Assembly (NCBI GenBank): GCA_964371045.1
Contig: CAYJMN010000003.1
Coordinates: 1,459 to 65,458, forward strand
Direction of reading: 5' to 3'
DNA from: an uncultured Chromatiales bacterium
GTDB lineage: Bacteria > Bacteroidota > Ignavibacteria > SZUA-365
Length of the DNA stretch: 64,000 nucleotides
The notes under the pieces were generated by a model, which was given only the letters and a program-made list of their open reading frames with translations, had not been told where the DNA came from and did no database searches. Shown piece by piece: positions 8,474-28,461 of this stretch. The number at the start of each line of letters is the position of its first letter. Within the stretch, counting starts at the first letter, position 1. The position numbers and the translations under genes are program-made.

Positions 8474-8821
8474 ATGAACGAAAACGGAATTTCGAAGGAA
8501 TACGAGGAACTGGTAAAAACCTTTCTCCGATTACTGGAAACCGACGCGGACGAGCAGGGTCTGGACGACAGCGAATGCATCGCTCGGATACGGCTTGTTC
8601 TTGAAGGGATTGTTGCCGACGTAACATCTCATGGCACCGATCCACAGCATGCAGAAATTTTTTTCCAGGAAATGAGAGACCATGCGCGTGAGCTTTTCAT
8701 CCAGCGCTGCAAGGACGCAAGGGCAAGATATGGAGATGATGAGCCTGAAGACGCCGATGAGGCACATGAGGACGGCGAATATTTCGATAAACTCTATCGT
8801 GGTGAAATTATTCCTTTATAG
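8474..8821 (+). CDS. hypothetical acidic protein
   Basis: 115-aa ORF, D/E-rich, about 50% GC, weak RBS. Confidence 0.35.
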   Translation: MNENGISKEYEELVKTFLRLLETDADEQGLDDSECIARIRLVLEGIVADVTSHGTDPQHAEIFFQEMRDHARELFIQRCKDARARYGDDEPEDADEAHEDGEYFDKLYRGEIIPL

Positions 8822-9174
8822 CGTCGGAATAGCACACAATTTTTCGGTTCTTCGTCTGGCTCGCGACCAATCCAGAGGCCAGTGGCGTCATCCCGGAGAA
8901 TTGTGGCTGTCGTACGGTACGTCAGTCCTGTGCCGGCACGGGCAAACGTGGCAGAGTTTTGTGGGAGCAAGTTCACCGCTCCCCTCCCAGCACCGCCCAG
9001 GCGCTTATCTTTATGCCAAACGCCATCCCGAAGTCGTACCTGACGCACTGGCTTGAAACAGAGGGTTAAGTTCTCGTGCAGTCGAACGTCCGAAACGCTG
9101 CTCTTGCAGGGACAATTCGGCGTCCGACATCCGGTCGCCGGTCACCTCAATCGTTCGCACACACGGAAAGAGGC

Positions 9175-9498
9175 ATGAAAGACATGGCCATACCCGAAAA
9201 ATACCAAGCCTGGATTGAGGCGCGGAAGCGTTTTAAGCTTACCCACGCCCAAATACAGATGGCCCGGGAACTCGGTATGAACCCCAAAAAATTCGGTAGT
9301 CTCGCCAACCACGATCAGGAGCCCTGGAAGGTGCCGCTCGCCGAATTCATCGAGGATCTTTATCAAAAGAACTTCAAGAAAGCGGAACCCGATATCGTCC
9401 GATCCATCGAAGACATAGCGAAGGCGGCGAAGGCAAAGAAGGACGGGAAGAAGGCACGAAAGCGAGCAAGATCCGCGGAGGAACCGGGAGATGCATAA
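9175..9498 (+). CDS. hypothetical protein (Lys-rich C-terminus)
   Basis: ATG at 9175 preceded by ggaaagagg. MKDMAIPEKYQAWIEARKRF..., C-terminal KAAKAKKDGKKARKRAR. Confidence 0.4.
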   Translation: MKDMAIPEKYQAWIEARKRFKLTHAQIQMARELGMNPKKFGSLANHDQEPWKVPLAEFIEDLYQKNFKKAEPDIVRSIEDIAKAAKAKKDGKKARKRARSAEEPGDA

Positions 9499-9881
9499 GG
9501 GTGCGAACACCGGTGTGCTTGTGACGGGCGATACTCTGCTTTGCGCACTGCGCGACCTGACATCAACTGGCACCCGCTCGTGACGCTGAACCTTGGAACG
9601 GCGAGAATACCATGAGCCCGCTGCCCCAACTGGTCGAGCGTGCGGACCGCCTGGGGGGCCGATTCCCGCTGCACGGCGGAATGCGCATCCATTTCACACC
9701 CTCGTGTGGCCGAACGGCGCAGACTTGGCCCCGGAGTTTCTCTTTAACAAATGTCGGATCGCCGCCTCACCCGCTTGTCGAGCCGACACGGTCTAAGGAT
9801 AATCTTCAACCCCAGGTTCTGTCCGCGAGCGGCTTGTGCGCGGGACGTCAGACTGACCAACAATAACGAGGAGTGACGTAG

Positions 9882-10196
9882 GTGGCTCTAATTACCGACC
9901 TTCGACATTTTCTGGATGAGCACGGTGCCATCCCCGACGAGATCACAGCGCCAGCGCTGAAAATCGCCCTGTTTCTGGGTTCTATCACCGGCTGGGTGAC
10001 GATTAACCCTACTCCGCGTTTCAAGGAAACCAACGTTCCATGCCGCTTTAGTCCTGGACGCAGACGGTGCCCCGGGAGGGTCTTCGCCCGTTTCGAGGTA
10101 GATGGCACTACGATTGCTTGGGAATGCCCTATTTGTGGCGATAATGGTTTAGTCCACGGTTGGGAAGGTACGATGTGGGATCGTAGTAAGGAATAA
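9882..10196 (+). CDS. hypothetical zinc-ribbon-like protein
   Basis: GTG start with gaggag RBS 8 nt upstream. Four Cys in C..C...C..C arrangement (PCRF..RRCPG...ECPICG). Confidence 0.4.
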   Translation: MALITDLRHFLDEHGAIPDEITAPALKIALFLGSITGWVTINPTPRFKETNVPCRFSPGRRRCPGRVFARFEVDGTTIAWECPICGDNGLVHGWEGTMWDRSKE

Positions 10197-10337
10197 CGAT
10201 CCAGCGGTTGCCGACGGCCCATACAAGCTCTTGCAGGCGGACGCGAAGCAAGGATGGTGACAGAATCGAAAAGAATACTCGGCGCCGATAAAGCGCCGGA
10301 CGTTTGACCTCCTAATAGCGAAAGGTACTCTTACATC

Positions 10338-10886
10338 ATGCGACCACTTCGGTATTCCATCAACGTCACACTGGACGGGTGCTGCGATCATCGCGCGGGC
10401 GTCCCCGACGAAGAATTGCATCGTCACGCGGTAGAGAACCTCAACCGGGCCGATGCCCTGCTCTTTGGCCGGGTGACGTACGAAATGATGGAGGCGGCGT
10501 TTCGGTCGCCTGAGCGGACGGGAACGATGCCCGATTGGATGGAACCCTTCGCCCGGACCATCGACGCGGCAAAAAAGTACGTTGTGTCGAGCACCCTGGA
10601 GCGAGTCGATTGGAACGCGGAGCTCTTACGCGGAGATCTGGAAAAGGCCGTTCAGCAGCTAAAACGAGAGCCGGGTAAGGGGCTGTTCATAGGTGGCGTG
10701 AAGCTCCCGCTTGCGTTGGCGGAGATGGATTTGATCGATGAGTACGAATTCGTGGTGCAGCCAATGATAGCGGGCCATGGCCCGACCTTGTTCGCGGGGC
10801 TATCGAAGCGCATCGACTTGAAGCTCGTGAGCCGACTGGAGTTCGCCTCGGGTGCGGTGGCGATGCGGTATGAGCCGAGGAGGTAG
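10338..10886 (+). CDS. dihydrofolate reductase family protein (RibD C-terminal domain-like)
   Basis: 182 aa. MRPLRYSINVTLDGCCDH...LLFGRVTYEMM...LFIGGVKLPLALAEMDLIDEYEFVVQPMIAGHGPTLF is typical of the YwjB/RibD_C family. Confidence 0.8.
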   Translation: MRPLRYSINVTLDGCCDHRAGVPDEELHRHAVENLNRADALLFGRVTYEMMEAAFRSPERTGTMPDWMEPFARTIDAAKKYVVSSTLERVDWNAELLRGDLEKAVQQLKREPGKGLFIGGVKLPLALAEMDLIDEYEFVVQPMIAGHGPTLFAGLSKRIDLKLVSRLEFASGAVAMRYEPRR

Positions 10887-11004
10887 CGGATCGGCCTCGT
10901 GACGCCGACGCCGGGGCCCGACCAACCCGCCGCAGCGGGTTAAGCGGCACAGAGACACTTGACAAGCTAGGGGGCTCCGTATAGGTTGATCATATACAGA
11001 CTTC

Positions 11005-11319
11005 ATGCAAATTCCAGAACATATCGAAGGTTTTCAGTGGGACCAGGCGAACAAGGAGAAACACAGGACCGGACGCAACGTCGCGTGGCAGGAATGCGAG
11101 GAGGTCTTCTTCAATGTACCGCTCTATACGTATCCAGACCTCAAGCACTCTGAGAAAGAATCTCGGCATGGAGCTCTTGGTCAGACGAACACCGGCAGAC
11201 TGCTGTTCGTCGTCTTCACGGCCCGGGGAACGGTGGTGCGGGTCATCTACGCACGGGATATGAATAAAAAGGAGCGCGAGGTGTACCATGAAAAAGCTCA
11301 AAAAGATTCCAACGTTTAG
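11005..11319 (+). CDS. brnT: BrnT toxin (DUF497 ribonuclease)
   Basis: 104 aa, intact. FQWDQANKEKHRTGRNVAWQECEEVF ... HSEKESRHGALGQTNTGRLLFVVFTARGTVVRVIYARDMNKKEREVY. Confidence 0.85.
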   Translation: MQIPEHIEGFQWDQANKEKHRTGRNVAWQECEEVFFNVPLYTYPDLKHSEKESRHGALGQTNTGRLLFVVFTARGTVVRVIYARDMNKKEREVYHEKAQKDSNV

Positions 11320-11581
11320 GACCGAGGACGAAGAACGAGAATTCTGGGCAACCCACGATTCGACCGAATATATGGACTGGTCGAAGGCGAAACCCACGCT
11401 TTTCTCGAATCTGAAACCGTCGAGCCGAACGATTTCGATTCGACTGCCGGAGTCCTTGCTCGAACACATTAAGCTCCTCGCAAACCAACGGGACGTACCC
11501 TACCAGTCGCTCTTGAAGATTCTGCTGGCGGAGAAGGTTCAGGAGACACTGCAGTCCGGTAAGCGGAAAAGCGTTGCTTGA
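11288..11581 (+). CDS. brnA: BrnA antitoxin (CopG-like)
   Basis: 97 aa. Overlaps brnT by 32 nt. EDEEREFWATHDSTEY...ISIRLPESLLEHIKLLANQRDVPYQSLLKILLAEKVQ. Confidence 0.8.
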   Translation: MKKLKKIPTFRTEDEEREFWATHDSTEYMDWSKAKPTLFSNLKPSSRTISIRLPESLLEHIKLLANQRDVPYQSLLKILLAEKVQETLQSGKRKSVA

Positions 11582-11698
11582 CCATTCTGATATGGAGTCA
11601 AAGACTTTTTGATCCGTGCACATCCGCATTCATCCGTGCCAATCCGCGTACGTATTCACACGCGGGTCGCGGCAATCAGCTACTCGTTTGCGGACCGC

Positions 11699-11953
11699 TC
11701 AGTTACGATATCGCAACTGAGCGATGAGGACGGCATCGGTCGTGACCTTATAGACGATACGATGCTCCGCTGTTATGCGACGTGACCAATAGCCGTTGAG
11801 CGCGTGGCGAAGTTTTTCCGGTTTGCCTATTCCCTCGAAGGGCGTACGCTGAATCTCCCGAATGAGTGTGTTGATGCGTAACAAGATTTTCTCATCATTT
11901 TTTTGCCAATGGAGGTAATCCTCCCAGGCAGCCGCAGAAAAAATCAAATTCAA
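11699..11953 (-). CDS. yoeB: YoeB toxin
   Basis: 84 aa. MNLIFSAAAWEDYLHWQKNDEKILLRINTLIREIQRTPFEGIGKPEKLRHALNGYWSRRITAEHRIVYKV is the canonical YoeB/Txe sequence. Confidence 0.9.
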   Translation of the reverse strand: MNLIFSAAAWEDYLHWQKNDEKILLRINTLIREIQRTPFEGIGKPEKLRHALNGYWSRRITAEHRIVYKVTTDAVLIAQLRYRN

Positions 11954-12201
11954 TCGATCAACTCCCGCCCGATCCCCTTTCCTTCTTCAAGTTCCAGCAT
12001 CGATGCGAGCAGGCGACGCGCGTTCGCGGGCGAACGCAACAAGTGCACCGTTTCCTCCAACGCCTCGTATTCTTCCAGGGAAAGAACAACGACGCTGTCG
12101 TTGTTGGCGCGTGTGACGATGACCGGCTGATGGTTGCTGCAAACGCCTTCCATTACTTTCGCCAGATTCTGCCGCGCCGCCGTGTATGTTATAGCTTTCA
12201 T
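11950..12201 (-). CDS. yefM: YefM antitoxin
   Basis: ATG at 12201 (cat on + strand). MKAITYTAARQNLAKVMEGVCSNHQPVIVTRANNDSVVVLSLEEYEALEETVHLL. 4-nt overlap with yoeB. Confidence 0.85.
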   Translation of the reverse strand: MKAITYTAARQNLAKVMEGVCSNHQPVIVTRANNDSVVVLSLEEYEALEETVHLLRSPANARRLLASMLELEEGKGIGRELID

Positions 12202-12766
12202 GACAATATCCTGTACATGTACATAATAATGTACGACTGTAATCGGGAAACTCCAACGAGCGTCTTCGAACCGTTGGTGACCCCGGAGGCAACATCGTGA
12301 AACCGTACAAAAGAAGTTGCGGCTGTGAATTCCGGGCAATACGCAGCGAGGGAATTCATTCGACTGAAGTGCAGCCCACGAAGTCCCTCTTTTCGAGCCA
12401 TGCGGCCGACCGCTTTCGCGCTGAAGGAATTGCCTCCCGCCGGGGAGGACCGGATTGTCGAGCTGGTGAAAAAAGGGATGGGCTGAGGTCCGCACGAACG
12501 CTCAATCCACCATCCCCCCACCGCACTTCCTGTGGCTAGCCGACGATTACATCGGTGTGCATCGGTCCGAGCCACGACGGGACATCCCCGCCTGCTTCGG
12601 ATCCGCTAATCCTGTTCTTCATGTCCGGAATTGCATTCCAACTCCGTTCAACATATTTTTACGACTAACCTGTGTTTTTCGTCGTACCCGCTCACATGAA
12701 CCATTAATGACGCACCGAGCCGACGATGGATATCATTCACGTTCGGGGCAAAGGAGTGGAGGAATC

Positions 12767-14917
12767 ATGATCATTCGAATGGGTTTCTGTTGCATTTCGA
12801 TTCTCTTTCTATTTTTCCAGAAAACACCGTGCGAAGCCCAATCCGGCTGGTACTGGCAGAATCCGCTACCGCAGGGAAACATCCTCACCGCTGTTTCCTT
12901 CACCGGAGCGAACACCGGGACGGCGGTAGGCGTTGCCGGCACGATTCTGCGCACCACGAACGGCGGAACGAAGTGGACAATACAAAACTCCGGAACGACA
13001 AACAGTCTGGTTGACGTGTTCTTCACGGATGCGAACACGGGTACCGCAGTCGGCGGAGATGGTACGATCCTCCGCACCACGGATGGCGGAACGCATTGGG
13101 GGAATCTAACCACCGGGACAACGGACGCGCTTTCCGGGGTGTTCTTCACGGATGCGTACACAGGGACCGTTGTCGGCGGCAACGGTACCATCCTCCGCAC
13201 AACCGATGGCGGAGCGACCTGGACTGAACAGCCCTCGGGTTTAATCCTCGCAACTGTGCTCAACTGCGTCTTCTTCACGGACGCTACGACAGGAACGACG
13301 GTCGGAACCGGTGGCACGATCCTCCGGACAACCAACGGAGGGACAACTTGGACAAGCCAGATAAGCGGTACGCAATACGACCTCAGCAGTGTATCCTTCA
13401 CCGATGCGACAACGGGATTCGCAGTCGGAGCGAAAGGGACGATCCTGCGGACAACCAATGGCGGAGCGGATTGGACGATTCAATCCAGCGGGACACTCAC
13501 TGCTCTGGGAGCAATCTGCTTTAGCGATGCCGCTACTGGAACCATCGTTGGATCCGCGGGAACCGTCCTCCGAACGACCGATGGCGGAACGACGTGGACG
13601 AAGCAGTCCAGCGGAACGATGGAGGCACTTCTTGGAGTTTCCTTCGCCGATGCAGCGACCGGATTTTCTGTCGGCACCAACGGTACTATCCTTCGCACGA
13701 CCGATGGCGGAGCCCGTTGGGACGCTCAATCACACATCGTGTCATTGGAATCACTCAATGACGTCACTTTCACCGATACAAATACCGGAACAGCGGTCGG
13801 CGACAACGGCACGATTCTCCGGACGACCGATGCCGGAGCGAATTGGACGGTGCAAGCGAGCGGAACGACTGCGCAGCTCAACGGGGTATCCTTCACCGAC
13901 GCGAACACGGGCCATGCGGTAGGCGGACTCATTTCCGTGGGGAGTCCGGAGGTAATCCTGCGCACCACCGACGGCGGCGCATTGTGGAGCATCACAAACA
14001 TTTCGTTACCGACGGCCACAACCATGTTATCGGATGTTGCTTTCGCCGATGCAAGCAGCGGAATCGTTGTCGGCTTAATAGATTACAGCGGAATGATCCT
14101 GACTACGTCCGACGGTGGGGCGAGTTGGACGAGGCAGGCAATCGGGAGGGTGCCTCCGCTCTACGGCGTGCACTTTACCGACGTCAACACAGGCACCGTG
14201 GTGGGAGAACAAGGCACGATCCTTCACACCAGCGATCGCGGCGCGCATTGGTCACCACAGGCAAGCGGCACAGGAGGAAGAAACCTGTTTGGCATCTGCT
14301 TCGTCGATACCAGCATCGGCATGATCGTAGGCGATGGTGGCACGATACTGCGAACGACCGATGGAGGGTCGGTCTGGAACAGCCAGTCCTCCGGAACCCA
14401 ACGGACACTTTTAGATGTCAGTTTCACCGATGCAAATACAGGAACGGTGGTCGGCGAAGCCGCCACGATCCTCCACACTACCGATGGCGGTGCGAGTTGG
14501 ATCGATCAGTCGCCGCGTGCATGGTATAATTTTTCGGGAGTTACCTTCACCGATGCTACTACAGGAACCGCCGTCGGGATGCACGGAATAATTTTCCGCA
14601 CCACCACCGGCGGCGTGACCTGGGTCGAGGAGCCGAAACCCTCCCCTACCCTCTTCCATCTCGCACAGAACTACCCGAATCCGGTCACCACGAGCACCAA
14701 CATACCCTTCTCCGTCACGAAGCGAGAACACGTGACGCTCGGCGTGTACAACATGCTTGGACGCCGGATAACTGTGCTGGTGGACGAGGAGCGTGAGATG
14801 GGATCGCATGCAGTCCCCTTCGATGCCACGGGGCTTGCTTCAGGGATGTACTTCTATGTGCTCAGGACCGGGAGTGTGGTTGAGACGAAGAAGATGCTTG
14901 TGGTAGGCCCTGAATAA
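12767..14917 (+). CDS. BNR/Ycf48-like repeat protein with T9SS C-terminal sorting domain
   Basis: ATG at 12767 after aaaggagtggagg. Signal peptide MIIRMGFCCISILFLFFQ. About 14 repeats of GTILRTTDGGxTW. C-terminus NYPNPV...GMYFYVLRTGSVVETKKMLVV is a Por/T9SS CTD. Confidence 0.85.
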   Translation: MIIRMGFCCISILFLFFQKTPCEAQSGWYWQNPLPQGNILTAVSFTGANTGTAVGVAGTILRTTNGGTKWTIQNSGTTNSLVDVFFTDANTGTAVGGDGTILRTTDGGTHWGNLTTGTTDALSGVFFTDAYTGTVVGGNGTILRTTDGGATWTEQPSGLILATVLNCVFFTDATTGTTVGTGGTILRTTNGGTTWTSQISGTQYDLSSVSFTDATTGFAVGAKGTILRTTNGGADWTIQSSGTLTALGAICFSDAATGTIVGSAGTVLRTTDGGTTWTKQSSGTMEALLGVSFADAATGFSVGTNGTILRTTDGGARWDAQSHIVSLESLNDVTFTDTNTGTAVGDNGTILRTTDAGANWTVQASGTTAQLNGVSFTDANTGHAVGGLISVGSPEVILRTTDGGALWSITNISLPTATTMLSDVAFADASSGIVVGLIDYSGMILTTSDGGASWTRQAIGRVPPLYGVHFTDVNTGTVVGEQGTILHTSDRGAHWSPQASGTGGRNLFGICFVDTSIGMIVGDGGTILRTTDGGSVWNSQSSGTQRTLLDVSFTDANTGTVVGEAATILHTTDGGASWIDQSPRAWYNFSGVTFTDATTGTAVGMHGIIFRTTTGGVTWVEEPKPSPTLFHLAQNYPNPVTTSTNIPFSVTKREHVTLGVYNMLGRRITVLVDEEREMGSHAVPFDATGLASGMYFYVLRTGSVVETKKMLVVGPE

Positions 14918-14961
14918 CGGTATTCGCCGATGCTCCAAGGCGCTGGAGGAACTGAAAGAAA

Positions 14962-15004
14962 CAGGCCAGCACCCGATTTTGGCAATCAGGTGCTGGCTTG
15001 TTAA
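14962..15004 (+). terminator. rho-independent terminator-like hairpin
   Basis: gccagcacc ... ggtgctggc stem followed by a T-rich stretch, 45 nt after the stop of the BNR gene. Confidence 0.5.
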
Positions 15005-15157
15005 CAAATCGCGATGTTAGGGATCTGGCGAATTCAGCAAAGATTAACTGGTTTTAGCCTCACTTGTGAAAAAATCCCGGCTCAACGTACACATCCGCTT
15101 TTTCGAGTTCGCCAGGCTTCACGATACCCTTTTCATACAGACTCTCTTGCAGATAAC

Positions 15158-15694
15158 TCAGTCGGATTCTGTGTCGAATCCCTCCAGACGCTCAAGAGCC
15201 TCTCGAGGCGTATCCATGAATAGATAAAGATGGTTTAGGTCATCAGCTAAACTGATGAACCCGTGTTTAAGATAAAACTCTCTGGCCAGATCGTTTTTTG
15301 CATGCGCCTCAATGGCGCGGGCCACAATCTGTTCCGACAATGAAATAGCTCTTTCAATTGCGTCCCACAACAACTCACTCCCATAGCCCTTTTCTCGATG
15401 AGAATTTGATACCGCTAATCGACCTATTCGAACCGCTGGAATTGGATGCCGGGGAAGTCCCTTAACCAACTCTTTCTGAAGGTGGATCGTGTTGATCTCC
15501 GCCATAGCGATCGCATAATAACCCAATATCTCCGATTCATCCTCTTTATGGAGCACGTATGTGACGCTCATCCCCAGCGTCATGTGCTTCCTTGCTCTCT
15601 TGTGTAGAAAGTCATTGAGCTCGGGGACGTCACAATCGAAGCCTTTACGATCAAAGTCTGGGGAGAGCTGTGAAATGCAGCGATCAGAGGCCAT
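15158..15694 (-). CDS. GNAT-family acetyltransferase toxin (TacT-like)
   Basis: 178 aa with an acetyl-CoA-binding-like core (RLAVSNSHREKGYGSELLWDAIERA). Overlaps and sits downstream of a DUF1778 antitoxin gene. Confidence 0.75.
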   Translation of the reverse strand: MASDRCISQLSPDFDRKGFDCDVPELNDFLHKRARKHMTLGMSVTYVLHKEDESEILGYYAIAMAEINTIHLQKELVKGLPRHPIPAVRIGRLAVSNSHREKGYGSELLWDAIERAISLSEQIVARAIEAHAKNDLAREFYLKHGFISLADDLNHLYLFMDTPREALERLEGFDTESD

Positions 15695-16007
15695 GGGATG
15701 ATTTAATCTTCTGTCTGTGGCGCCTGGCAGCTTTTAACAATGCCTTGTTCGGCTTTGCGGGATTTTCCAGCATACGCATAAATATTTCAGAATCGGCTAA
15801 TGAAAGCTCAGTAGCCCGATTCTCGCGTAATACACTCTGGGCGACTTTCAGGCTATTCGACAAAACGAAGCTCATAAGGCTTTGCCCCGTGACTGTAGCA
15901 GCCGCCTCGAGCAGAGTTTTTTGTTTCGCGTCAAGACGAAGATCAATTCTACGGTCTTTTGCTGGTTTCTCGTGTTTATCGTCGATTTGAAGGGCTAGTT
16001 CTTCCAT
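15684..16007 (-). CDS. DUF1778 antitoxin (TacA-like)
   Basis: ATG at 16007. MEELALQIDDKHEKPAKDRRIDLRLDAKQKTLLEAAATVTGQSLMSFVLSNSLKVAQSVLRE is typical DUF1778. Confidence 0.8.
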   Translation of the reverse strand: MEELALQIDDKHEKPAKDRRIDLRLDAKQKTLLEAAATVTGQSLMSFVLSNSLKVAQSVLRENRATELSLADSEIFMRMLENPAKPNKALLKAARRHRQKIKSSHGL

Positions 16008-16093
16008 TTCTATGCTCCTATGCGAAATAATCAGATCAACATGCCGCATTGACTACTGAGTGCAGCAACAGATTGTTTTATCGTCCAATCTAT

Positions 16094-16190
16094 ACGGAGC
16101 AATTCCGTAAACTGACAAGAATAAGGACAGGATACGGAAAATATCCGTAATGATTCAGTCTAACGTCAAGAGTACGGCATATTTCCGTAT
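16094..16190. promoter_or_regulatory. three TACGG-N7-CCGTA palindromes at exact 40-bp spacing
   Basis: tacggagcaattccgta (16094-16110), tacggaaaatatccgta (16134-16150) and tacggcatatttccgta (16174-16190). They lie 87-180 bp upstream of the tacA-like start. Confidence 0.5.
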
Positions 16191-16436
16191 AAGTCAAGAG
16201 TCTTTTCTCCCCCCATTTTTTCCGAGCTGAGGCGTGAGTTCCTGAGATGGGCGGAGTGCGGGGAAGCCTTCTCTTGTTTACAATGCAGCTTTCAAGTCAC
16301 CAGCGATCAAGCAGGAACAGATGATTTTGATGCCCGCTTGATGCTCACTTATTGCCAATGTGGATGCCTTATAACTCCTTTCGCCCCTGCCTCTCATCTT
16401 CGTCGATGGGAGTTTGTCCACCAATATATTCGAGTT

Positions 16437-16865
16437 CTAATCCCACAGGTACCTCGGCATCGTACGGACGAGTTCGTCCGCCTTCGAACGAACCGCTCTT
16501 TCGATCCGCTCAGACGAAACCCCCTGCTCCTCAAGTTCCATCGACTTCGATGTTCGGAGGACAATCGTGAGTGCGACCTGTCTCGCTCTCTTCTCGATCA
16601 TCGTATCAAGAGATGCTTCCCTTGGAATGAGGACGTGGACGAGATCCAGATCAAGAGCATTCGCGGCCTGCCGAAGTGATCTCAACGTGATCGATCCGTC
16701 CGCTTCCCGCTCCTCCATCTCCATCACGCTCTGGGGCGATATCTCCAGCCTGGCCCCAAGTTGACGGAGCGACATCCCGAAGGCAGTCCGAAAGGCATTG
16801 AGCCAGCCTCGTTCCGGAACTGCGGATATCAGATCGGAATGTCTATATTGAGCGTAAATGTTCAT
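16437..16865 (-). CDS. mobile mystery protein A (HTH, TIGR02612-like)
   Basis: ATG at 16865. ...GWLNAFRTAFGMSLRQLGARLEISPQSVMEMEEREADGSITLRSLRQAANALDLDLVHVLIPREASLDTMIEKRARQ. No partner mystery protein B (Fic) gene is adjacent. Confidence 0.7.
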   Translation of the reverse strand: MNIYAQYRHSDLISAVPERGWLNAFRTAFGMSLRQLGARLEISPQSVMEMEEREADGSITLRSLRQAANALDLDLVHVLIPREASLDTMIEKRARQVALTIVLRTSKSMELEEQGVSSERIERAVRSKADELVRTMPRYLWD

Positions 16866-17338
16866 GTTACAGCGGACAATCTGATGAGTATTCCCCTGTT
16901 TCTTGTTGAGGTAATGCAAGCTGTATGGCGTGAAGAGACTACTCCTTGACCCCAGGGACATTCGTTTATCCTCGATCAAGCCTTGCATCGTCAGCAAATT
17001 CCAATTATGTTTGCAACAAGCTGGTTTCAAGCCATATTTGACCCATAATTGGACTGAGTTGGCGGAGCTGGGTGCGTTGAAGAAAACGCACGGTCACAGG
17101 TCGATCAATGCAGCCGCTGATGAATTATCAGGAAACGTCAGGTCACGGAAGTTCAATGACCACGGGAATGCCATGATGTCACAGAAACAAGCATGCGGAG
17201 AATTCAATCCCCATCCGATGATCTCTGAAGTCGGCCAGCGTAATCTCCGTCATGTTTGAGAGTGAGGCCGCAATGATTTTACTGGTTCGTCCAATGATAC
17301 AAATCTCAAACCTGTCCCACAAGAATCACTGAAGTGCC

Positions 17339-17401
17339 TTCAGTTCTCCGAATGAACATTTGTGCTGAAAAGCCCGCCCATCGCAAATCTGCAAAACGTT
17401 A
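17339..17401. repeat. 63-bp direct repeat, left copy
   Basis: ttcagttctccgaatgaacatttgtgctgaaaagcccgcccatcgcaaatctgcaaaacgtta. 60/63 identical to 18875-18937. Confidence 0.85.
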
Positions 17402-17424
17402 GCGCCAACCTAAAAATCAATAAC

Positions 17425-18750
17425 ATGAAAAAGCAAATATTACGGATGATCAAAATCACCGCGTTTGTATTTTTCCCCGTATTTTTTTCCCCGTCACTTG
17501 TAGTTTCGCAGACTGCAGATTCTTTTTTCGTAGCTGGCATTCATCCCACAGCATCTCTTCAATCCACAACAACCGGAAAACAAATAATGACCTTATTTTC
17601 ATGGAAAGGAAGACTCTATTCCGGATACGGAGATTATGGCGCAAATACCGGGCCCATAAATATTTATTCTTTTTCGCCGGATTCGTCCACCTTTACATAC
17701 GAAGCACAGGCAAATACCGAAGCAATCTATAATTATCGTGCCATTAACGGAATGTTATATGCTCCTTCTATCGACCGCAAATCATATGCAATTCCTGGGG
17801 ATTATATAAAGGAGGATAGCAACGGACTTTGGACTAATTATAATTTTCTCAGTAATTCAACGCATGTATATGATGCTGCAAGGCTCAATGATACCGTATT
17901 ATTCATGGTAGGCTCGCAGTCTGATAGAGCAGTAGTATGGAAAAGCAGCAATAATGGCCTAACCTGGAAAGTAATTTTAACTGTTTCTGCGATCAGTGGA
18001 AAAACTGGCGACTTTGCAAGATTTTATTTCGCAGGCATGTATAATGGTAATTTATATGTGCAGGCAAGGGATTATTACGGATCACTTCATCTCAACTCAG
18101 AAGTATATAACGGTGTTAACTGGACCAATGGACCTTCGCTATTTCCGTCATCTAATTTGCAGGGTTGGAAACCGGAAGTATTTGCCGGAAAGCTTGTTTA
18201 TAGAAGCTGGGAACCTGGATTGTCTTCTCAACTCATAACTTTTGATGGTACAAATAATATATCTGCAGGATTATATGTACTTGACTGTTTTATTCATTCC
18301 AATTATTATTATGCACTTGTAGATTCGGGTTTTGGCGTAATAAATCTAAGACGAACAACAGACCTTATCAGATGGGAAAATATATTAGCTGTGCCAGCGA
18401 AGAGCCGCAGTCTTGCTATTCTGAATGACAAACTATTTATCGGTACTACTGATTCAAAAATTTTACAATTCACCAAATCCGTTTCTTTATTAACTACTTC
18501 TGTCCCAATTCTGAAACCAGATGAATTCCAGCTAACTTTTTATCCCAATCCGGTAACTGATTTTATTCAGTTGGCCTTTTTTGAATCCCATGATATTTTT
18601 GAAGTTGATATAATAAACATACATGGTGAAATAGTTCTTAAAATAAGAAACGAAAACAAGGTCAATGTTTCAGAATTATCAAGCGGGATGTATTTTCTTA
18701 AAATAAAACAGGGGAATAATTTCATTATGCAAAAATTCATTAAACAATAA
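17425..18750 (+). CDS. secreted propeller-like protein with T9SS C-terminal sorting domain, low-GC origin
   Basis: ATG at 17425 with a signal peptide. BNR-like SSNNGLTWKV. C-terminal FYPNPVTDFIQL...SSGMYFLKIKQGNNFIMQKFIKQ. GC about 33% versus about 60% in the flanks. Confidence 0.8.
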   Translation: MKKQILRMIKITAFVFFPVFFSPSLVVSQTADSFFVAGIHPTASLQSTTTGKQIMTLFSWKGRLYSGYGDYGANTGPINIYSFSPDSSTFTYEAQANTEAIYNYRAINGMLYAPSIDRKSYAIPGDYIKEDSNGLWTNYNFLSNSTHVYDAARLNDTVLFMVGSQSDRAVVWKSSNNGLTWKVILTVSAISGKTGDFARFYFAGMYNGNLYVQARDYYGSLHLNSEVYNGVNWTNGPSLFPSSNLQGWKPEVFAGKLVYRSWEPGLSSQLITFDGTNNISAGLYVLDCFIHSNYYYALVDSGFGVINLRRTTDLIRWENILAVPAKSRSLAILNDKLFIGTTDSKILQFTKSVSLLTTSVPILKPDEFQLTFYPNPVTDFIQLAFFESHDIFEVDIINIHGEIVLKIRNENKVNVSELSSGMYFLKIKQGNNFIMQKFIKQ

Positions 18751-18874
18751 TTGATGCAAAAATAATCTGTGACACAGGCGATATAACATCTCGGGAAGAA
18801 CGGGCTGGCTATAACAGCACATTTGCAATAGGCGGGGTTTCGTTCTCCGCAGACAGTTTTATGGTTAGAGAAAG

Positions 18875-18937
18875 TTCAGTTCTCCGAATGAACATTTATG
18901 CTAAAAAGCCCGCCCATCGCAAATCTGCAAGACGTTA
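18875..18937. repeat. 63-bp direct repeat, right copy
   Basis: Matches 17339-17401 with 3 mismatches. Confidence 0.85.
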
Positions 18938-19009
18938 TGGGTAATCCCCACGGTTCAGGTCAATATGTCCGGTTGCTCTCTCATAAAACGGGGCACTGGA
19001 GTGTAGACC

Positions 19010-19306
19010 ATGAAACAACCAAACCCACGGCGTGAAGAGATTCTGCAGCGTTTGAATCAGCCTGGCGCTCCATCTGTCGGAGTGATATCCGAGGAAACCG
19101 GTACTCCAAAAGCTACATTGTACTATTGGTTGTCACGTCGCGATAATGGCGGCAACCGCTCAATGTCAAGACAGGAAGGAAATCCCGGCATGCGCAAGCG
19201 TAGCAAACCCCGTTCCCCGTCTACAAAACTTCGCCTCGTTTCCGAGAGCATGGAACTCGAAGGGGATGCACTTCGCAGCTGGGCCCACGACGGCATCAAA
19301 GCCTGA
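19010..19306 (+). CDS. transposase-like HTH protein fragment (IS3-OrfA-like?)
   Basis: 98 aa. ATLYYWLSRRDNGG and RLVSESMELEGDALRSW resemble IS-family OrfA HTH/leucine-zipper N-termini. Overlaps a convergent ORF, so the call is weak. Confidence 0.3.
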   Translation: MKQPNPRREEILQRLNQPGAPSVGVISEETGTPKATLYYWLSRRDNGGNRSMSRQEGNPGMRKRSKPRSPSTKLRLVSESMELEGDALRSWAHDGIKA

Positions 19307-19801
19307 TGCTTCGATCTCCACGTCCTCATCCTCTATCGGTTCGTCACCAACTTCTTTGCAATAATCTTCTTCAGAGTGTGTCTCGGTTGTTACAACATCA
19401 ACAGGTATATCCGACCACATCCGCATCACGAGCCACAACCCAGCTTGTTCGACCTGTACGAGAAATTTAGCAAGACTGTTGATGACTGCGAGGTTGAGCT
19501 TTCTGAACTCCTCACTGTCCACGCCGCCTAGTTCCATGCACCGAGTGCCATATATGCAGACCATCGAGCGGAACTGCTCGATCATTTTGGCGTGAGTCGG
19601 CGAGATGGGCTGGTGTGTGGCGACATGGATAGTATCGGCGATGACGAGGTAGTTTAGCGTATCAACGCCGGTGGAGAGTTGGAAGAACGTATGCTCCACA
19701 TTTTCATTCAACTGGTTCATGGGTTCTGCTCCTGTCTCTGGTATCATAATACCTATTTGAGATTCATCCGCTTGTACAAACTCTCCAATGCAAGTCCGCA
19801 T
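19166..19801 (-). CDS. hypothetical protein
   Basis: 211-aa ORF in a lower-GC (about 48%) segment. Confidence 0.3.
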   Translation of the reverse strand: MRTCIGEFVQADESQIGIMIPETGAEPMNQLNENVEHTFFQLSTGVDTLNYLVIADTIHVATHQPISPTHAKMIEQFRSMVCIYGTRCMELGGVDSEEFRKLNLAVINSLAKFLVQVEQAGLWLVMRMWSDIPVDVVTTETHSEEDYCKEVGDEPIEDEDVEIEASGFDAVVGPAAKCIPFEFHALGNEAKFCRRGTGFATLAHAGISFLS

Positions 19802-20019
19802 CCACGAACCAATAATTCCACCATCTGCGACAGCAGAGAACGAAAGAATGAGGAAACTGCTCTAGAACGTATCCTATTTCTCGTCGCATCTAAATGAACC
19901 ATGGAGACGATATATTCGGGGTTACACAAATATACAATAATTTAATGACTTTTCCTAAACCGCTGTTGATCTCCTCGGTACAACAGTCCACTGGGATGGA
20001 TACCAATTCGAGGTTCTAC

Positions 20020-20721
20020 TTATGCACTCCCGATGTCGGTGGTCACTGTTACTGCACGTAACTCTGTCTTATGAAGATATGCATCAACTGTTCTTGGCAT
20101 TGTGGACAACATCTTAGAAAGTTCGTCCAAAGATGGCGGACGCTGATTAGTCGAATCCGTCACGTTTTCATGCTTCCTAGAAGAACTGAATCCGCCGAGC
20201 TGTTTCGAAAGGAATTTTCTTTTGAGCAGATCCATCATTCTGTCAAGCATTTTCACTGCGTGTAGGTCTCCTTCGTGCACTGCTCTCTTCCGCTCCGCAT
20301 CCAGATCTCCAATCATTGAATCAAGAGTCTCACGGTCGTCAGGAACATCCTCATTCTCAATGCTCAGCTCAGTGTCCAATGAGAATGTTTCGAGCAGCCT
20401 ACGAGGATCTCTAGGTGCATCATTCAGTTCTTCCTTGAGAACAGAATCTTTAGCCGTAATCTTATGGGGCATGACGATCACTGAGTCGAAACCAGTTCTC
20501 TCCGCAATTGGCGTAGGTGCGTCGCTGAGCTTGGATCCTCCGTGAACCGTCCCGATGTTCGGATAGTCAGCTAAAATCGTTTCCTGAGCCTCTGCGAGCG
20601 TCACCACTACGTTGTTACACTGATGTGGCATCTGTACCTCGGCATCTTCAAGCAGAGTGCTTTCATCGTCAGCGGATAGGCAGCGGTCTGAACCTTTATG
20701 CACGCCGTCGGGGCCATCCAT
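20020..20721 (-). CDS. hypothetical acidic protein
   Basis: 233-aa ORF in a low-GC (about 45%) segment. Confidence 0.4.
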   Translation of the reverse strand: MDGPDGVHKGSDRCLSADDESTLLEDAEVQMPHQCNNVVVTLAEAQETILADYPNIGTVHGGSKLSDAPTPIAERTGFDSVIVMPHKITAKDSVLKEELNDAPRDPRRLLETFSLDTELSIENEDVPDDRETLDSMIGDLDAERKRAVHEGDLHAVKMLDRMMDLLKRKFLSKQLGGFSSSRKHENVTDSTNQRPPSLDELSKMLSTMPRTVDAYLHKTELRAVTVTTDIGSA

Positions 20722-20846
20722 GGCTTCGTATCCAGAATCGGCTGCGAGCCGTACAAGGATTGAAACTGATCCAATAATACTCTTTCTACAAGTTCCGCAT
20801 GCTTCGGAATCGTGAGAATCGAATCATGGACGGTAAAGATCGGTAC

Positions 20847-22082
20847 CTATGGATGATGGTTCATGAGGAACACGCAGGCGTGATCGATCACCATCTTAGA
20901 CTCCATCCTTTGAAGCTTGATCGCCAGTTTGTTGTGTCCATTGATCTTTAGAGTCCGAATCATTTTATACACATGCGGGAACCTTGTCATGAAGATTCTT
21001 TCATTCTCAGATTTCCAGCGGTTCTTGCCGAACAGGATCGGCATGAACTCCGCCTTCGCGGTATCTCGGTCAGTGTTCCAGAGATTGGCAAGGCCTTCGT
21101 AGAAGACACCAGCGTGATTCAGTTCGATGTACAACACAATGTTCTCAGCGACATTCAGCCAGCGTTCTCCGGTACATACATCGGGGCAGAGTCCTTTCTC
21201 CGTGGAGTCCACTGCTGTACAAGTGAGCGGCTCAGACAGAGGAGAACCACAGGTGTCAGTAGACATGTCTTCCGCATGAGGTAATTCACTGGTACATATG
21301 AAGGGTTTTTCTGCGTGTTCATATTCGCTGGTACATATGAAGGCTTCTTCTACGAGAACAATTTCACTGGTACATATGAAGGGTTTCTCTGCGTGTTCAT
21401 CTTCGCTGGTACATATGAAGGGATCTTCATCGTGTTGCAATTCACTGGTACATATGAAGGGATCTTCGTGTTGACGCTGAGCTATCTGAAATTCTGTTCT
21501 TGTGCTTTCATTTTTGCAATTTACTGGTACATATGTGAAGGGTATGACACAGGGGACATCAATCTTTGTGTTCTTAATATCTTTAAGAGATATATTTTCA
21601 TTAGATATAACTTCCTTAATGCTAATCTGTTTCTCTGATCTTTCAATTCTTGTTTTAATACTTCTATCACTAATATCATTGTTGTTTGATAAGAGGAACG
21701 CCTTCTTTGATGTTATAGGGGTTTCAACACCACGTTTGATCACCAAAGAAAGGAAATATGGTTGAGAATTTTTAATGTCAACTGCGACAAGATTCTCACC
21801 TGCGAAGGAAACGAATGACCGCATCACTCTTGCGGTTCGGGTAATGGAGGAATGGAATCTGAATGATGTCGCATCACGTCTGCCACCGTTGTGGTTCGAG
21901 TAGGCAGTCTGAATCAGAATCCAGCAATTCTTTCGATGGACATCCATCCTTTCTGCGGCCTCCTTTGACTTCGCTGTATCCAGAATGAGCCGTTCATCGG
22001 CAAGCCACCTGTTGAGGTACCGAGTGACTTCATCCTGTGGTTTCTCATCATAGATCACTTTTTTCTTAATGAATTTGACCAC
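20847..22082 (-). CDS. hypothetical replicon-like protein with 13-aa tandem repeats (..PFICTSE..)
   Basis: 411-aa ORF (GTG start at 22082 or a later ATG). Contains six perfectly conserved 16-19-bp DNA repeats at 39-bp spacing next to an AT-rich tract. GC about 42%. Confidence 0.5.
   Translation of the reverse strand: MVKFIKKKVIYDEKPQDEVTRYLNRWLADERLILDTAKSKEAAERMDVHRKNCWILIQTAYSNHNGGRRDATSFRFHSSITRTARVMRSFVSFAGENLVAVDIKNSQPYFLSLVIKRGVETPITSKKAFLLSNNNDISDRSIKTRIERSEKQISIKEVISNENISLKDIKNTKIDVPCVIPFTYVPVNCKNESTRTEFQIAQRQHEDPFICTSELQHDEDPFICTSEDEHAEKPFICTSEIVLVEEAFICTSEYEHAEKPFICTSELPHAEDMSTDTCGSPLSEPLTCTAVDSTEKGLCPDVCTGERWLNVAENIVLYIELNHAGVFYEGLANLWNTDRDTAKAEFMPILFGKNRWKSENERIFMTRFPHVYKMIRTLKINGHNKLAIKLQRMESKMVIDHACVFLMNHHP
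21287..21543. repeat. iteron-like array: 6 copies of cactggtacatatgaaggg
   Basis: Cores at 21289, 21328, 21367, 21406 and 21445 with exact 39-bp period, plus a variant at 21524. Spacers are diverged while cores are 100% identical, including synonymous positions. Followed by a roughly 25%-GC tract at 21545-21720. Confidence 0.6.
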
Positions 22083-22109
22083 GATGGGATCGTTCTGGAA
22101 GCGTGGATA

Positions 22110-22240
22110 ATAAAGCCTATTCTCGCATGAAGTCGTCTAAGATAGTGATAATAAAGGAGTTAGCTCAAAATCACCAAAAAAAACAAATCTGCGATTTTGG
22201 CTCATTTTCGCCACTTTTTCACCGATGAAAATACATCTTA
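22110..22240. repeat. 131-bp direct repeat R1, left copy
   Basis: ataaagcctattctcgcatgaagtcgtctaagatagtgataataaaggagttagctcaaaatcaccaaaaaaaacaaatctgcgattttggctcattttcgccactttttcaccgatgaaaatacatctta. About 96% identical to 24172-24302. A 28-bp motif tttaaccac..tttttaaccagttcg also recurs at 22313-22341 and 24123-24162. Confidence 0.85.
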
Positions 22241-22626
22241 CCTCGTCACTTTTAAGCCAAAAATTGGCGTTTTTGATACTGTTTACGCCGTTTTTCAGCC
22301 GACATAAAAAACGATTTAACCACCTTTTTAACCAGTTCGGAGCGTGAAACTGTTCGAGAAGAAGCAAGCATCCGTCAGTTAAATCGGTGAACCCTCTCAG
22401 TATGACAATTCAGGTTCCGAGCGAGGGCGGGCCCGTCCACACTCCGCCATCAGGAGACCAGCCAGGCGGGACTCCATGCCACTACGGAACGCATGGGCGT
22501 GATCGAGATGGATGTTGGGACGGTTTGTTTTTGGGATAAACCGCTCGTATGATTGAATGTTATTCCAAGGTAGATTCTCTTTGATTCTACACATCAAACA
22601 GAGCACCAACATTACGAGACCAATTC

Positions 22627-23922
22627 TTGATACCACAGTTAGTCCGAACGGGATATCTTTTCCTGATGCTGTTTCTCACTTCGCAACTGTGCCGAGCACA
22701 ATCCGAAGCATTCAGTGATCAACGTGAATCACTACGGCACTCGTTTGTTATAAATTCTGGTTGGGCACGGCAACAAAGCGGGACCTCATTCACATGTTTC
22801 GGGATTTCATTCAGAGATAAAACAAATGGTTTTGTCGTATGCCGGGAGGCGTTGATTCTCGGCACAACAGATGGCGGCGATACATGGGTTGATCGATCCA
22901 ACTGGAAGGTACCCAATCGGGAGCTAAAGGCAGTCACCTTTGTAAATTCAAATCGAGCTTTTGCCTGTGGCGGAGGGAGTAGCATTTACAGAACAACCGA
23001 TGGCGGTGCAAATTGGACGAGTCAAGGATTCTGGCCAATGTACGGCTTCACAGCGATCTCATTCTGCGATACTTTACATGGCTGTGCGGTAGGGTGGGGT
23101 GGGACTATTCTTCGCACGACTGATGGGGGAGATCACTGGGTACAACAGACGAGCGGAACGACAGAATGGCTATTGGATGTTGACCTCCAGAGTCCGGAAA
23201 TTTGCACCGTCGTCCTGCAGTACGGTGTTCTCCGCACTACCGACGGTGGCAACACCTGGGTTATGAATCGAGATGTAGGTGGAAACGGTATCTCATTTAC
23301 AGATAATCTCGTCGGAACCATCATTGGAGGGTACGGCATGATTTTCCGGACAACCGACGGGGGAAATACTTGGACGCAACAGGCAAGTGGGACGACCATT
23401 CATCTCCAGGCAGTTTCTTTCTCAGACTCGTCTAATGGAACGGTTGTCGGTCCAGATGGGCTTATACTGAGAACCACAGATGGCGGAGATCACTGGACTA
23501 CGCAATCAAGTGGAACCATTGCATGGCTCTTTGATGTACAGATGATCGATGCGAATACCGTGACAGTAGTCGGGGACACAGGTATCATCCTCCGCACCAC
23601 CACCGGCGGTGTGACCTGGGTCGAGGAGCCGAAAAGTGCCCCTTCCCTTTTCCACCTCGGACAGAACTATCCCAATCCAGTCGCCGCGAGCACCAACATA
23701 CCCTTCTCCATCACGAAGCAAGAGCATGTGACGCTCAGCGTACACGACATACTTGGGAGACAGGTTGCTGTGCTGGTGGACGAGGAGCGTGAGATGGGAT
23801 CGCATGCAGTCCCCTTCGATGCGACTGGGCTTGCTTCGGGGATGTACTTCTATGTGCTTCGAACCGGGAGTGCTATTGAGACGATGAAGATGGTGCTGGT
23901 GAATCCAGCGGCTGGATTCTGA
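22627..23922 (+). CDS. BNR/Ycf48-like repeat protein with T9SS C-terminal sorting domain
   Basis: TTG start at 22627 (tool M). Signal peptide LFLMLFLTSQLCRAQS. Repeats of ILRTTDGGxxW. The last roughly 100 aa are nearly identical to the CTD of 12767-14917. Confidence 0.8.
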   Translation: MIPQLVRTGYLFLMLFLTSQLCRAQSEAFSDQRESLRHSFVINSGWARQQSGTSFTCFGISFRDKTNGFVVCREALILGTTDGGDTWVDRSNWKVPNRELKAVTFVNSNRAFACGGGSSIYRTTDGGANWTSQGFWPMYGFTAISFCDTLHGCAVGWGGTILRTTDGGDHWVQQTSGTTEWLLDVDLQSPEICTVVLQYGVLRTTDGGNTWVMNRDVGGNGISFTDNLVGTIIGGYGMIFRTTDGGNTWTQQASGTTIHLQAVSFSDSSNGTVVGPDGLILRTTDGGDHWTTQSSGTIAWLFDVQMIDANTVTVVGDTGIILRTTTGGVTWVEEPKSAPSLFHLGQNYPNPVAASTNIPFSITKQEHVTLSVHDILGRQVAVLVDEEREMGSHAVPFDATGLASGMYFYVLRTGSAIETMKMVLVNPAAGF

Positions 23923-24171
23923 TCGGACAATTGGGCTGACAGGCAGTCAATCACGTCAGAGTAGTGGAGAACCTCATATTTCCGAAACAATCGCAACATG
24001 TGAGTTGCCTTCTACGCCGCATCCCGTCGGGTTTTGAAATCGTTGTTATTCAGGATAAGTCAGCAATCGGTGAGCGGATAGCGATGGAAATATTCCATAG
24101 GTGTAAATACAAAGCGGGTAAAAATTTAACCACTTTTTACCCGCTTTTTAACCAGTTCGAAATGTCGCTGA

Positions 24172-24302
24172 ATAAAGCCTATTCTCGCATGAAGTCGTCT
24201 AAGATACTGATAATAAAGGAGTTAGCTCAAAATCTCCAAAAAAAGCAAATCTGCGATTTTGGCTCATTTTCGCCACTTTTTCACCTGTGAAAATACATCT
24301 TA
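24172..24302. repeat. 131-bp direct repeat R1, right copy (overlaps the glnA 3' end)
   Basis: Matches 22110-22240. The last 8 codons of glnA (EYKMYFHR*) lie inside this repeat. Confidence 0.85.
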
Positions 24303-27324: not shown

Positions 27325-27340
27325 ACGAGTGGCGAGTGAC

Positions 27341-27580
27341 GATTTACGATTGACGATTTACGATTGACGATTTACGATCTACGATTGACGAGTGACGATT
27401 TACGAGTTACGACTTGGATGCTATGGATGGTTGGAGCAGCGAATGGGTGACACAGTAGGCACGACATGCACCATCACCAGACCTCGTCAATCGTAAATCG
27501 CACCAAATCGTACATCGTAAATCGTAAATCGTAGATCGTAGATCGTAAATCGTAAATCGTAGATCGTACACCGTAAATCG
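27341..27580. repeat. inverted arrays of a tacgatt heptamer (long imperfect hairpin or cruciform)
   Basis: Left arm 27341-27410 is (gacgatttacgatt)n. Right arm 27488-27580 is (aatcgtaaatcgta)n, its reverse complement. A roughly 75-nt unique loop lies between them. Confidence 0.8.
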
Positions 27581-27608
27581 AAAAAGGATTCCTCGCGGAA
27601 TCCTTTTT
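27581..27608. terminator. bidirectional rho-independent terminator
   Basis: aaaaaggattcctcgcggaatccttttt: a 7-bp stem with an A-run before and a T-run after. Lies between convergent lipA and secG. Confidence 0.7.
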
Positions 27609-28425: not shown

Positions 28426-28461
28426 CCATGTAGAGACGTTGCATGCAACGTCTCTACATGG
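28426..28461. promoter_or_regulatory. perfect 36-bp palindrome containing the gtagagacgttgc repeat
   Basis: ccatgtagagacgttgcatgcaacgtctctacatgg. The half-site recurs at 28215-28227 and 28242-28254, and inverted at 28308-28320. Confidence 0.6.

Follow-up and report, generated by a model that had tools for sequence, protein, structure and literature searches.

A gene of low guanine + cytosine (GC) content, lying between two direct repeats, was analyzed in a 64,000-nt stretch of contig CAYJMN010000003.1 (assembly GCA_964371045.1) from an uncultured bacterium; the whole of this stretch is referred to below as the window. The gene, here called the cargo gene, is an open reading frame (ORF) for a protein with a C-terminal sorting domain (CTD) of the type IX secretion system (T9SS). 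The repeats, at 17339–17401 and 18875–18937, are 63 nt long, agree at 60 of 63 positions and are spaced by 1536 nt, and a 25-nt core shared by them has two exact occurrences in the window and none in 100 shuffles. Both repeats are the 3′ half of an imperfect palindrome of about 130 nt with the ground plan of an attC site, and it is the loss of the 5′ half from the upstream site that makes them seem to extend over only 63 nt. Our reading, which we consider probable and hold with good confidence, is that the repeats are attC-type sites and that 17399–18934 is a gene cassette, the stranded fragment of a foreign array, which can no longer be excised. The features concerned are as follows.

17328–17344, no strand: new 7-bp inverted repeat (ACTGAAG tgc CTTCAGT), made at the junction of unrelated DNA and the half-site
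17339–17400, + strand: half-site of the preceding, lost cassette, consisting of the second internal unit, the L′ arm and the R′ box (GTT at 17398–17400)
17399–18934, + strand: probable complete integron-type cassette, 1536 nt, beginning with the TT of the upstream GTT and ending with the G of its own GTT
17425–18750, + strand: cargo ORF, 441 amino acids, with signal peptide, β-propeller and type A T9SS CTD; 36.6% GC
18541–18741, + strand: type A T9SS C-terminal sorting domain of the cargo protein (residues 373–439)
18806–18943, + strand: complete attC-type site of the cargo cassette, recognized by its fold, by 163 bits to the family model and by covariation
18813–18815, + strand: AAC of this site, with the R″ flank
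18817–18819 with 18926–18928, + strand: mini-helix of this site
18821–18836, + strand: L″ of this site
18837–18908, + strand: variable central part of this site, two units of about 35 nt (72 nt)
18909–18924, + strand: L′ of this site
18929–18932, + strand: unpaired AAGA, a 4-nt bulge of this site
18934–18936, + strand: GTT of the R′ box of this site, with its flank
18935–19306, + strand: start of the next cassette, with a small helix–turn–helix (HTH) ORF at 19010–19306 (HTH_28)

The initial annotation, which was made from the DNA letters alone, had recorded the repeats and their identity as given here, and had described a single secreted propeller protein with a T9SS CTD, which the domain match and structural model presented below bear out. 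It had also placed a gene of 33% GC in a genome of about 60% GC; the contrast stands, with corrected figures of 36.6% for the ORF and 55.0% for the window. Its reading of the repeats as an att-like duplication produced by insertion has to be given up in favor of attC-type sites belonging to two different cassettes.

The cargo gene is part of a low-GC island at 14918–22626, outside which the window has a GC content of 56.3%. At third codon positions the GC fraction is 0.31 in the cargo ORF compared with 0.66–0.73 in native genes. The island is flanked by native high-GC genes (12557–14917 and 22627–23922) that encode BNR/Ycf48-like repeats and a T9SS CTD, and these are followed by glnA and lipA; the surroundings are thus those of the chromosome of a T9SS-bearing organism. 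At least four native CTD proteins are encoded in the window, from which the host T9SS is deduced, and the relatives of the host LipA come from uncultured metagenome-assembled genomes (MAGs) labeled 'Bacteroidia/Bacteroidota/Ignavibacteria'. The low-GC segment is not an assembly artifact, since three independent assemblies, each from another sample, agree at 100% of 10,955 nt, both junctions included. The same gene order is found in 23 contigs of the host population, and the cassette is present in all 23.

Structure of the complete site

The site at 18806–18943 reads ...TAAC-A-GCA-C-ATTTGCAATAGGCGGG...CCCGCCCATCGCAAAT-C-TGC-AAGA-C-GTTA... from its R″ to its R′ end. Its bottom strand folds into a hairpin of 6 + 3 + 16 bp with a free energy of −21.2 kcal/mol (z −3.3), and none of 200 shuffled sequences was as stable. 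The elements left unpaired are the 4-nt bulge on the R′–L′ arm and a G·G mismatch. The ground plan of attC sites is R″–L″...L′–R′ with AAC and GTT ends, a region that stays unpaired and a terminal structure that varies; canonical sites carry extrahelical bases, and their R and L boxes are separated by an unpaired central spacer (PMC7439510).

The palindrome escapes a search centered on the repeats: folding of 91 nt around each 63-nt copy missed half of the palindrome and hence yielded no significant hairpin (z −0.5 to −1.6). Similarly, RNAalifold found no consensus fold on the top strand because the G·T pairs of the bottom strand become A·C there. A scan of 14000–24000 against Rfam by E-value returned no relevant family.

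The site family in Bacteroidota

A 19-mer from the L′ arm occurs at no fewer than 120 genome loci in Bacteroidota, beside unrelated genes; among the loci listed are Flavobacterium, Pedobacter, Algoriphagus, Hymenobacter, Chitinophaga, Saprospiraceae, Cytophagales, Bacteroidales and others. Conservation covers the whole element and ends sharply at TAAC and GTTA. Of 153 full-length members, 129 have AAC and GTT where they are expected, and 63 of 72 copies share an AAC-to-GTT span of 124 nt. The boxes most often seen are TGGTAAC, CTATAAC and GCATAAC at one end and GTTAGCG, GTTATGG and GTTATGC at the other; only TAAC and GTTA are conserved, and the R-box consensus RYYYAAC/GTTRRRY is not matched by the family.

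A search with covariance model R1 and an nhmmer profile yielded 187 non-overlapping sites, the arrangement of which is that of cassette arrays. In loci with several sites the orientation is uniform (40 of 40), and some two thirds of the 33 intervals from one site to the next measure 0.67–1.7 kb. The longest ORF is co-oriented with the site in all 21 single cassettes; leaders are typically 24–60 nt, the site begins 10–30 nt after the stop codon and some 90% of most cassette bodies is coding.

Evidence that the fold is maintained comes from the bottom strand, which is more stable than the top strand in 92 of 107 copies. Compensatory changes are present in 22 of the 29 stem pairs across 98 sites, including array members not chosen by an exact word, with 368 double-change cells against 141 ± 8 after shuffling (0 of 500 shuffles reached this value) and at most 80 in slid controls. 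Three G·T pairs are conserved on the bottom strand, and two G·T pairs remain G·T in 94–95 of the 98 sites, which indicates that selection acts on one strand.

The cassette boundaries carry a further signature. When the 7 nt after GTT, i.e. the cassette start, were compared with the 7 nt before AAC of the cassette's own site, the mean complementarity was 5.58 of 7, compared with 3.55 for the flanks of the same site and 3.09 ± 0.25 for random pairs (0 of 2000 permutations), and 21 of 31 pairs matched at six or seven positions. The two flanks of the same site complement each other no better than permuted flanks. Such a 7-nt match is what would be expected if cassettes were excised as circles and reinserted with exchange at G|TT. 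The mechanism proposed on this basis is that the bottom strand of the site would fold into a long hairpin, that a recombinase would exchange strands in the R box between G and TT (top-strand notation) and that cassettes would leave as circles and then be reinserted.

Several other properties of the family were observed. The sites have 46.6 ± 3% GC whatever the GC content of the host (31–59%; all copies, L001–L123). Their central part consists of two tandem units of about 35 nt, each with a small hairpin, and some sites have only one unit or have insertions. The 19-mer core was also found in 15 predicted viral contigs from IMG/VR (L136–L150); the PLSDB plasmids gave no match.

Associated recombinases

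Of about 120 loci, 12 have a gene for a tyrosine recombinase beside the array; at nine of these the gene is located at the upstream edge of the array and is co-oriented with the cassettes. The start of the first cassette, predicted as GTT followed by the reverse complement of its own R″ flank, was found at all nine with 9–10 of 10 matches, 77–782 nt after the recombinase stop codon; the sequence before it is not of the attC type, being A/T-rich and loosely conserved. This junction is a candidate attI-like site.

The best NCBIfam model for the recombinases is NF040815 (XerA/integron integrase), with 188–226 bits and two proteins above the 220-bit cut-off. TIGR02249 (integron integrase) gave 170–208 bits, its cut-off being 265, and the match falls into two stretches between which profile positions of about 180–253 are left out. 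Correspondingly, no counterpart of residues ∼196–246 of VchIntIA (PDB entry 2a3v) is present, whereas XerA (5hxy) aligns from end to end. In Pfam terms, the catalytic domain is uninterrupted and is preceded by an N-terminal extension of about 100 amino acids; the family is large and is annotated only generically. The recombinases are relatives of integron integrases without being canonical ones, and the system would work like an integron, although we do not class it as a canonical integron.

The cassette in the window and a related array

The cassette in the window opens with a 26-nt leader; the ORF follows, and a spacer of 55 nt separates it from the cassette's own site. The start of the cassette (AGCGCCA) is complementary to its own R″ flank (TGGCTAT) at five of seven positions. 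The closest relative of the cargo protein, 95% identical, is encoded on a 2.66-kb Logan contig of 38.8% GC (L001), which matches 17339–18945 of the window with 97.8% identity and has a complete element on both sides of the gene. The order in L001 is the cargo cassette, an MNT/HepT cassette with a site of its own and the next cassette, whereas the window lacks the MNT/HepT unit. This unit, a nucleotidyltransferase/HEPN toxin–antitoxin (TA) cassette at 1878–2632 of L001, is inserted at the same GTT boundary, has a quite different site of about 108 nt, and its first 10 nt are complementary to its own R″ flank at ten of ten positions. The start of the next cassette (about 40 nt) is shared by the two sequences, with 87% identity between 18933–18975 of the window and 2615–2660 of L001; no terminal site for this cassette, which begins at 18935, was found in the window. 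In this comparison, the unit of presence or absence is the ORF together with its downstream site.

Apart from the extra TA cassette in L001, the two sequences agree in their order: the end of the preceding site comes first, then the cargo cassette, then the beginning of the next one. This shared order, the Saprospiraceae gene family to which the cargo gene belongs and the presence of the cassette in all 23 population contigs suggest that a fragment of a foreign array was acquired and then fixed, the cassette itself not having originated in the 56%-GC host.

The upstream copy shows how the fragment may have become stranded. Its R″–L″ half is gone, the model match upstream of 17339 has no pairing and L001 has a complete site at the equivalent position. 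The half-site begins at 17339, equivalent to position 18875 of the full copy; this position is both the midpoint between the AAC at 18813 and the GTT at 18936 and the border of the two internal units. Site-specific recombination does not cut in the middle of a site; the hairpin or palindrome may instead have broken at its center and then been joined to unrelated DNA. With the R″–L″ half lost, the upstream half-site cannot fold, and the cassette is therefore no longer excisable by the attC × attC route. If a recombinase became available, the downstream site could still take up cassettes.

The initial annotation had also proposed a single-gene cassette that is mobilized in trans and contains no recombinase, and this part is retained. 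It had set against this the possibility of an element that is widespread beside unrelated genes and lies away from insertion boundaries. The sequence is indeed widespread beside unrelated genes, in at least 120 genomes, but it lies exactly at cassette boundaries, so that the cassette idea survives in a more specific form. A low-GC Bacteroidota donor had been suggested as well, and the Saprospiraceae MAG proteins described in the next section, together with the copy in L001, agree with this.

The cargo gene and its protein

The cargo protein contains the Por_Secre_tail domain PF18962 (57.7 bits, cut-off 27) and has an N-terminus that resembles a signal peptide when judged by eye. An AlphaFold model built with 57 homologues (pLDDT 90.8) consists of a β-propeller at residues ∼34–352 followed by the β-sandwich of the CTD. 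The top PDB matches of the model are PorZ, which is the best (5m11), and the propellers of BT4663; outside the CTD, the protein has no detectable sequence family. The ORF is intact, and its annotated starts differ among the population contigs, giving 387 or 434 amino acids.

The nearest proteins, with 74–82% identity, are from Saprospiraceae MAGs, and the gene family is native to low-GC Saprospiraceae. Locus L003 carries an ordinary chromosomal copy (80.5% nucleotide identity) in which no site remnants were detected (z 1.1 or less), and locus L002 carries a copy with a site remnant upstream (z 15.6). A metagenome scan with the cargo protein returned only one distant match. Relative to the L001 copy, the ratio of nonsynonymous to synonymous substitution rates is 0.97 (24 nonsynonymous and 7 synonymous changes), and hence purifying selection on the protein has left no trace from the time after the copies diverged. 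In the flanking sites, only 4 of 281 nt differ. The idea in the initial annotation that the cargo is functional on arrival finds no support in these data, although its reading frame is unbroken.

An insertion of 128 nt was observed in the R′ box of the site remnant of L002 (about 9820–9950), with terminal inverted repeats of about 13 nt (AACGTCARWCTG...). Its end sequence (CGTCAAACTGTCTAAGAACT / CGTCAGTCTGTCTAAAAACT) also stands directly 3′ of sites in L101 (∼3090–3110) and L027 (∼6190–6215). It may be a small element that targets these sites.

Weighing of the explanations

Four other explanations were considered. The one serious alternative concerns history only: the host has, or had, an active platform, and the island at 14.9–22.6 kb is a decayed resident array into which the cargo cassette was inserted site-specifically. 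We regard this as unlikely, while giving it more credit than the remaining three. The island does hold typical passengers, namely TacA/TacT, small HTH genes and orphan ORFs; arrays of the site family are also found in high-GC Bacteroidota, such as Hymenobacter with 55% GC; and the host is itself a T9SS-bearing member of the Bacteroidota. However, a model search with filters off found only one and a half sites in the window, i.e. the complete site and the half-site, and no other site of any type stands out. A scan of the window for complementary arms recovered only the known site, the next best candidate (14960–15002) being a bidirectional terminator; in a constrained minimum-free-energy scan for attC sites, the null distribution reaches −31 kcal/mol in a genome as GC-rich as this one. 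The 64-kb window contains no tyrosine recombinase with the box II motif and no attI. Furthermore, the TA and HTH genes lack bounding sites and are encoded on the other strand, the next cassette is that of L001 without the TA cassette, which suggests that a block of several cassettes arrived together, and the upstream site is broken in its middle, unlike the outcome of site-specific recombination.

An improbable alternative is that the repeats are a regulatory or structural element, such as a terminator, a repetitive extragenic palindrome, an element resembling a miniature inverted-repeat transposable element or a structured RNA, with no role in mobility. The elements are widespread, conserved and hairpin-forming, they follow stop codons by 10–30 nt as terminators do, and hairpins in the cassette transcripts could attenuate transcription as a side effect. 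However, this leaves unexplained the complementarity of the 7 nt at cassette starts to the flank of the cassette's own site, the precise presence or absence of the unit of ORF plus site, and the linkage to a recombinase with a predicted junction. In addition, the strand with the conserved G·T pairs is antisense to the ORFs; a sense RNA from the 3′ untranslated region would therefore have A·C mismatches in their place, and there is no match in Rfam.

Still less probable is that the repeats are attL and attR, or a long target duplication, from the integration of a small one-gene island, as two direct repeats bracketing a compositionally foreign gene might suggest. The downstream copy belongs to a palindromic site of 130 nt, and what remains upstream is a truncated site of this kind; L001 has complete sites on both flanks, and the same sites separate unrelated array genes in at least 120 genomes. 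The variable unit is the ORF with its downstream site, not the stretch between duplicated targets, and neither an integrase nor a single-copy empty site was found. Finally, an assembly chimera joined through the shared repeat, an idea to which the metagenome-type sequence and the sharp drop in GC content between repeats might lend color, can be dismissed, since the junctions are identical in three assemblies from different samples, the gene order recurs in 23 contigs and the repeat copies differ at three positions.

Several points nevertheless weigh against the interpretation of 17399–18934 as a cassette from a foreign integron-like array. The case for recombination rests on comparative sequence evidence throughout, and the covariation alignment was fitted to the structure of the model. 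The unpaired elements of the site are arranged unlike the two single extrahelical bases of canonical sites. The additional domain specific to IntI is absent from the array-associated recombinases; this domain defines integron integrases and is held to be necessary for canonical integron recombination and for the recognition of folded attC sites. An empty single-copy site was found neither among the 23 population contigs, all of which carry the cassette, nor in the nearest relatives, which share only the glnA–orf114–lipA synteny. Lastly, that the cassette came in with an array fragment, and not by decay of a once-active host array, is a route that we infer.

Relation to known systems

The Bacteroidota arrays resemble sedentary chromosomal integrons, as exemplified by the Vibrio cholerae superintegron with its V. 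cholerae repeats (VCRs) of about 125 nt. In both, single promoterless ORFs are co-oriented and each has an AAC/GTT palindrome behind it, of a length of about 125–130 nt; the sites within a family are highly similar, the bottom strand folds better and TA cassettes occur in the arrays; the crossover is G|TT, and the cassette start complements its own R″ box. Unlike in the VCR integrons, the recombinase in Bacteroidota lacks the IntI-specific domain, is XerA-like from end to end and is usually co-oriented with the cassettes rather than divergent. In addition, the site sequence is conserved across a phylum and not within one genus, and the sites have a 4-nt R′–L′ bulge, a G·G mismatch and nnnTAAC/GTTAnnn boxes in place of RYYYAAC/GTTRRRY.

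As in the Xer recombination of CTXφ-type integrative mobile elements exploiting Xer (IMEX), a recombinase of the Xer type appears to act on hairpin-folded DNA. In IMEX, whole elements integrate at dif and there are no cassette arrays. The window itself is similar to the attC clusters that have no integron integrase (CALIN) and to orphan cassettes, in that a cassette with an attC-type site stands on a chromosome without an integrase in its vicinity, presumably an array piece that was degraded or transferred; it differs in having one complete site and a half-site cut at the center of dyad symmetry. The CALIN threshold of IntegronFinder 2 is at least two sites (PMC9024848). The Bacteroidota recombinases, with NF040815 as their best profile, also recall archaeal XerA-like integron integrases, but the archaeal enzymes are reported to keep the IntI additional domain (PMC9668308), which the Bacteroidota recombinases lack. 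The cargo protein has the architecture of type A T9SS cargo such as PorZ, with a signal peptide, β-propeller and Por_Secre_tail sandwich; it differs from PorZ in having a single propeller and in being encoded on a mobile cassette.

Integrons are regarded as rare or absent in Bacteroidota of the Bacteroidia type. Reviews merely include Bacteroidota among the phyla in which integrons have been detected, and IntegronFinder 2 reported only In0 elements and one Salinibacter integron in Bacteroidetes (PMC9024848). No description of the site family or of its platform was found in the literature, subscription journals not being covered. We tentatively propose, as a possibility that deserves consideration rather than as the expected outcome, that the sites and recombinases make up an undescribed, phylum-wide class of integrons in Bacteroidota, with an attC family of about 127 nt and an Xer-like integrase without the IntI domain. 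Such a class may span Flavobacteriia, Cytophagia, Sphingobacteriia, Chitinophagia, Saprospiria and Bacteroidales MAGs.

Other features of the window

Two further direct repeats lie around the island. One of 132 nt with 96% identity (22109–22240 and 24171–24302) brackets the native BNR/T9SS gene at 22627–23922; its right copy spans the last ∼22 nt of glnA and the region downstream, which is wholly different in the nearest relatives L130 and L133. This downstream region thus resembles a hot spot of rearrangement or integration that is separate from the cassette. The other, of 300 nt with 83% identity (14551–14850 and 23547–23846), corresponds to the 3′ ends of the two BNR/Ycf48-like T9SS paralogues on either side of the island, where the last propeller blade and the CTD are encoded.

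Inside the island, a pair of overlapping genes for a TacT toxin (GNAT) and a TacA antitoxin is located at 15158–16049 on the − strand, with 46–48% GC; no recombination site bounding this pair was found. The ORF at 20847–22082 (− strand) encodes an orphan protein of 411 amino acids, with about five tandem 39-nt repeats at 21268–21462 that give the peptide ...EDPFICTSE.... The island ORFs at 19166–22082 had no match in PHROGs or Pfam.

Elsewhere, positions 27340–27584, between lipA and secG, contain two arms of about 78 nt that are 85% complementary and consist of short tandem units (CGATTTACGATTGACGA and similar), and a perfect 42-nt palindrome lies at 28423–28464 (GTTCCATGTAGAGACGTTGCA | TGCAACGTCTCTACATGGAAC). 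Three successive giant ORFs (1602, 1650 and 1610 amino acids) occupy 36289–51024 on the − strand, and the product of 36289–41097 has precomputed matches to DUF7948 and, weakly, to a T9SS CTD. Positions 1–12500 are densely filled with small ORFs (120–240 amino acids) on both strands and look like an array; no recombination sites were found there.

Biological implications

At least 120 Bacteroidota genomes carry one site family with all of the comparative hallmarks of cassette mobility. The proposed class may have been invented independently, or it may preserve an ancestral form of recombination at folded single-stranded sites. If the recombinase is active, the system would bear on how integron recombination evolved from Xer recombination, and integron searches based on the IntI-specific domain could miss whole phyla. 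It would also provide access to a large unexplored pool of cassettes, including genes for defense, toxin–antitoxin pairs and secreted T9SS proteins. Cassettes, T9SS cargo among them, may be exchanged between distant lineages, as the cassette in the window illustrates: here, the gene for a surface or secreted protein appears to have moved from a low-GC to a high-GC lineage within an array fragment and then to have become fixed.

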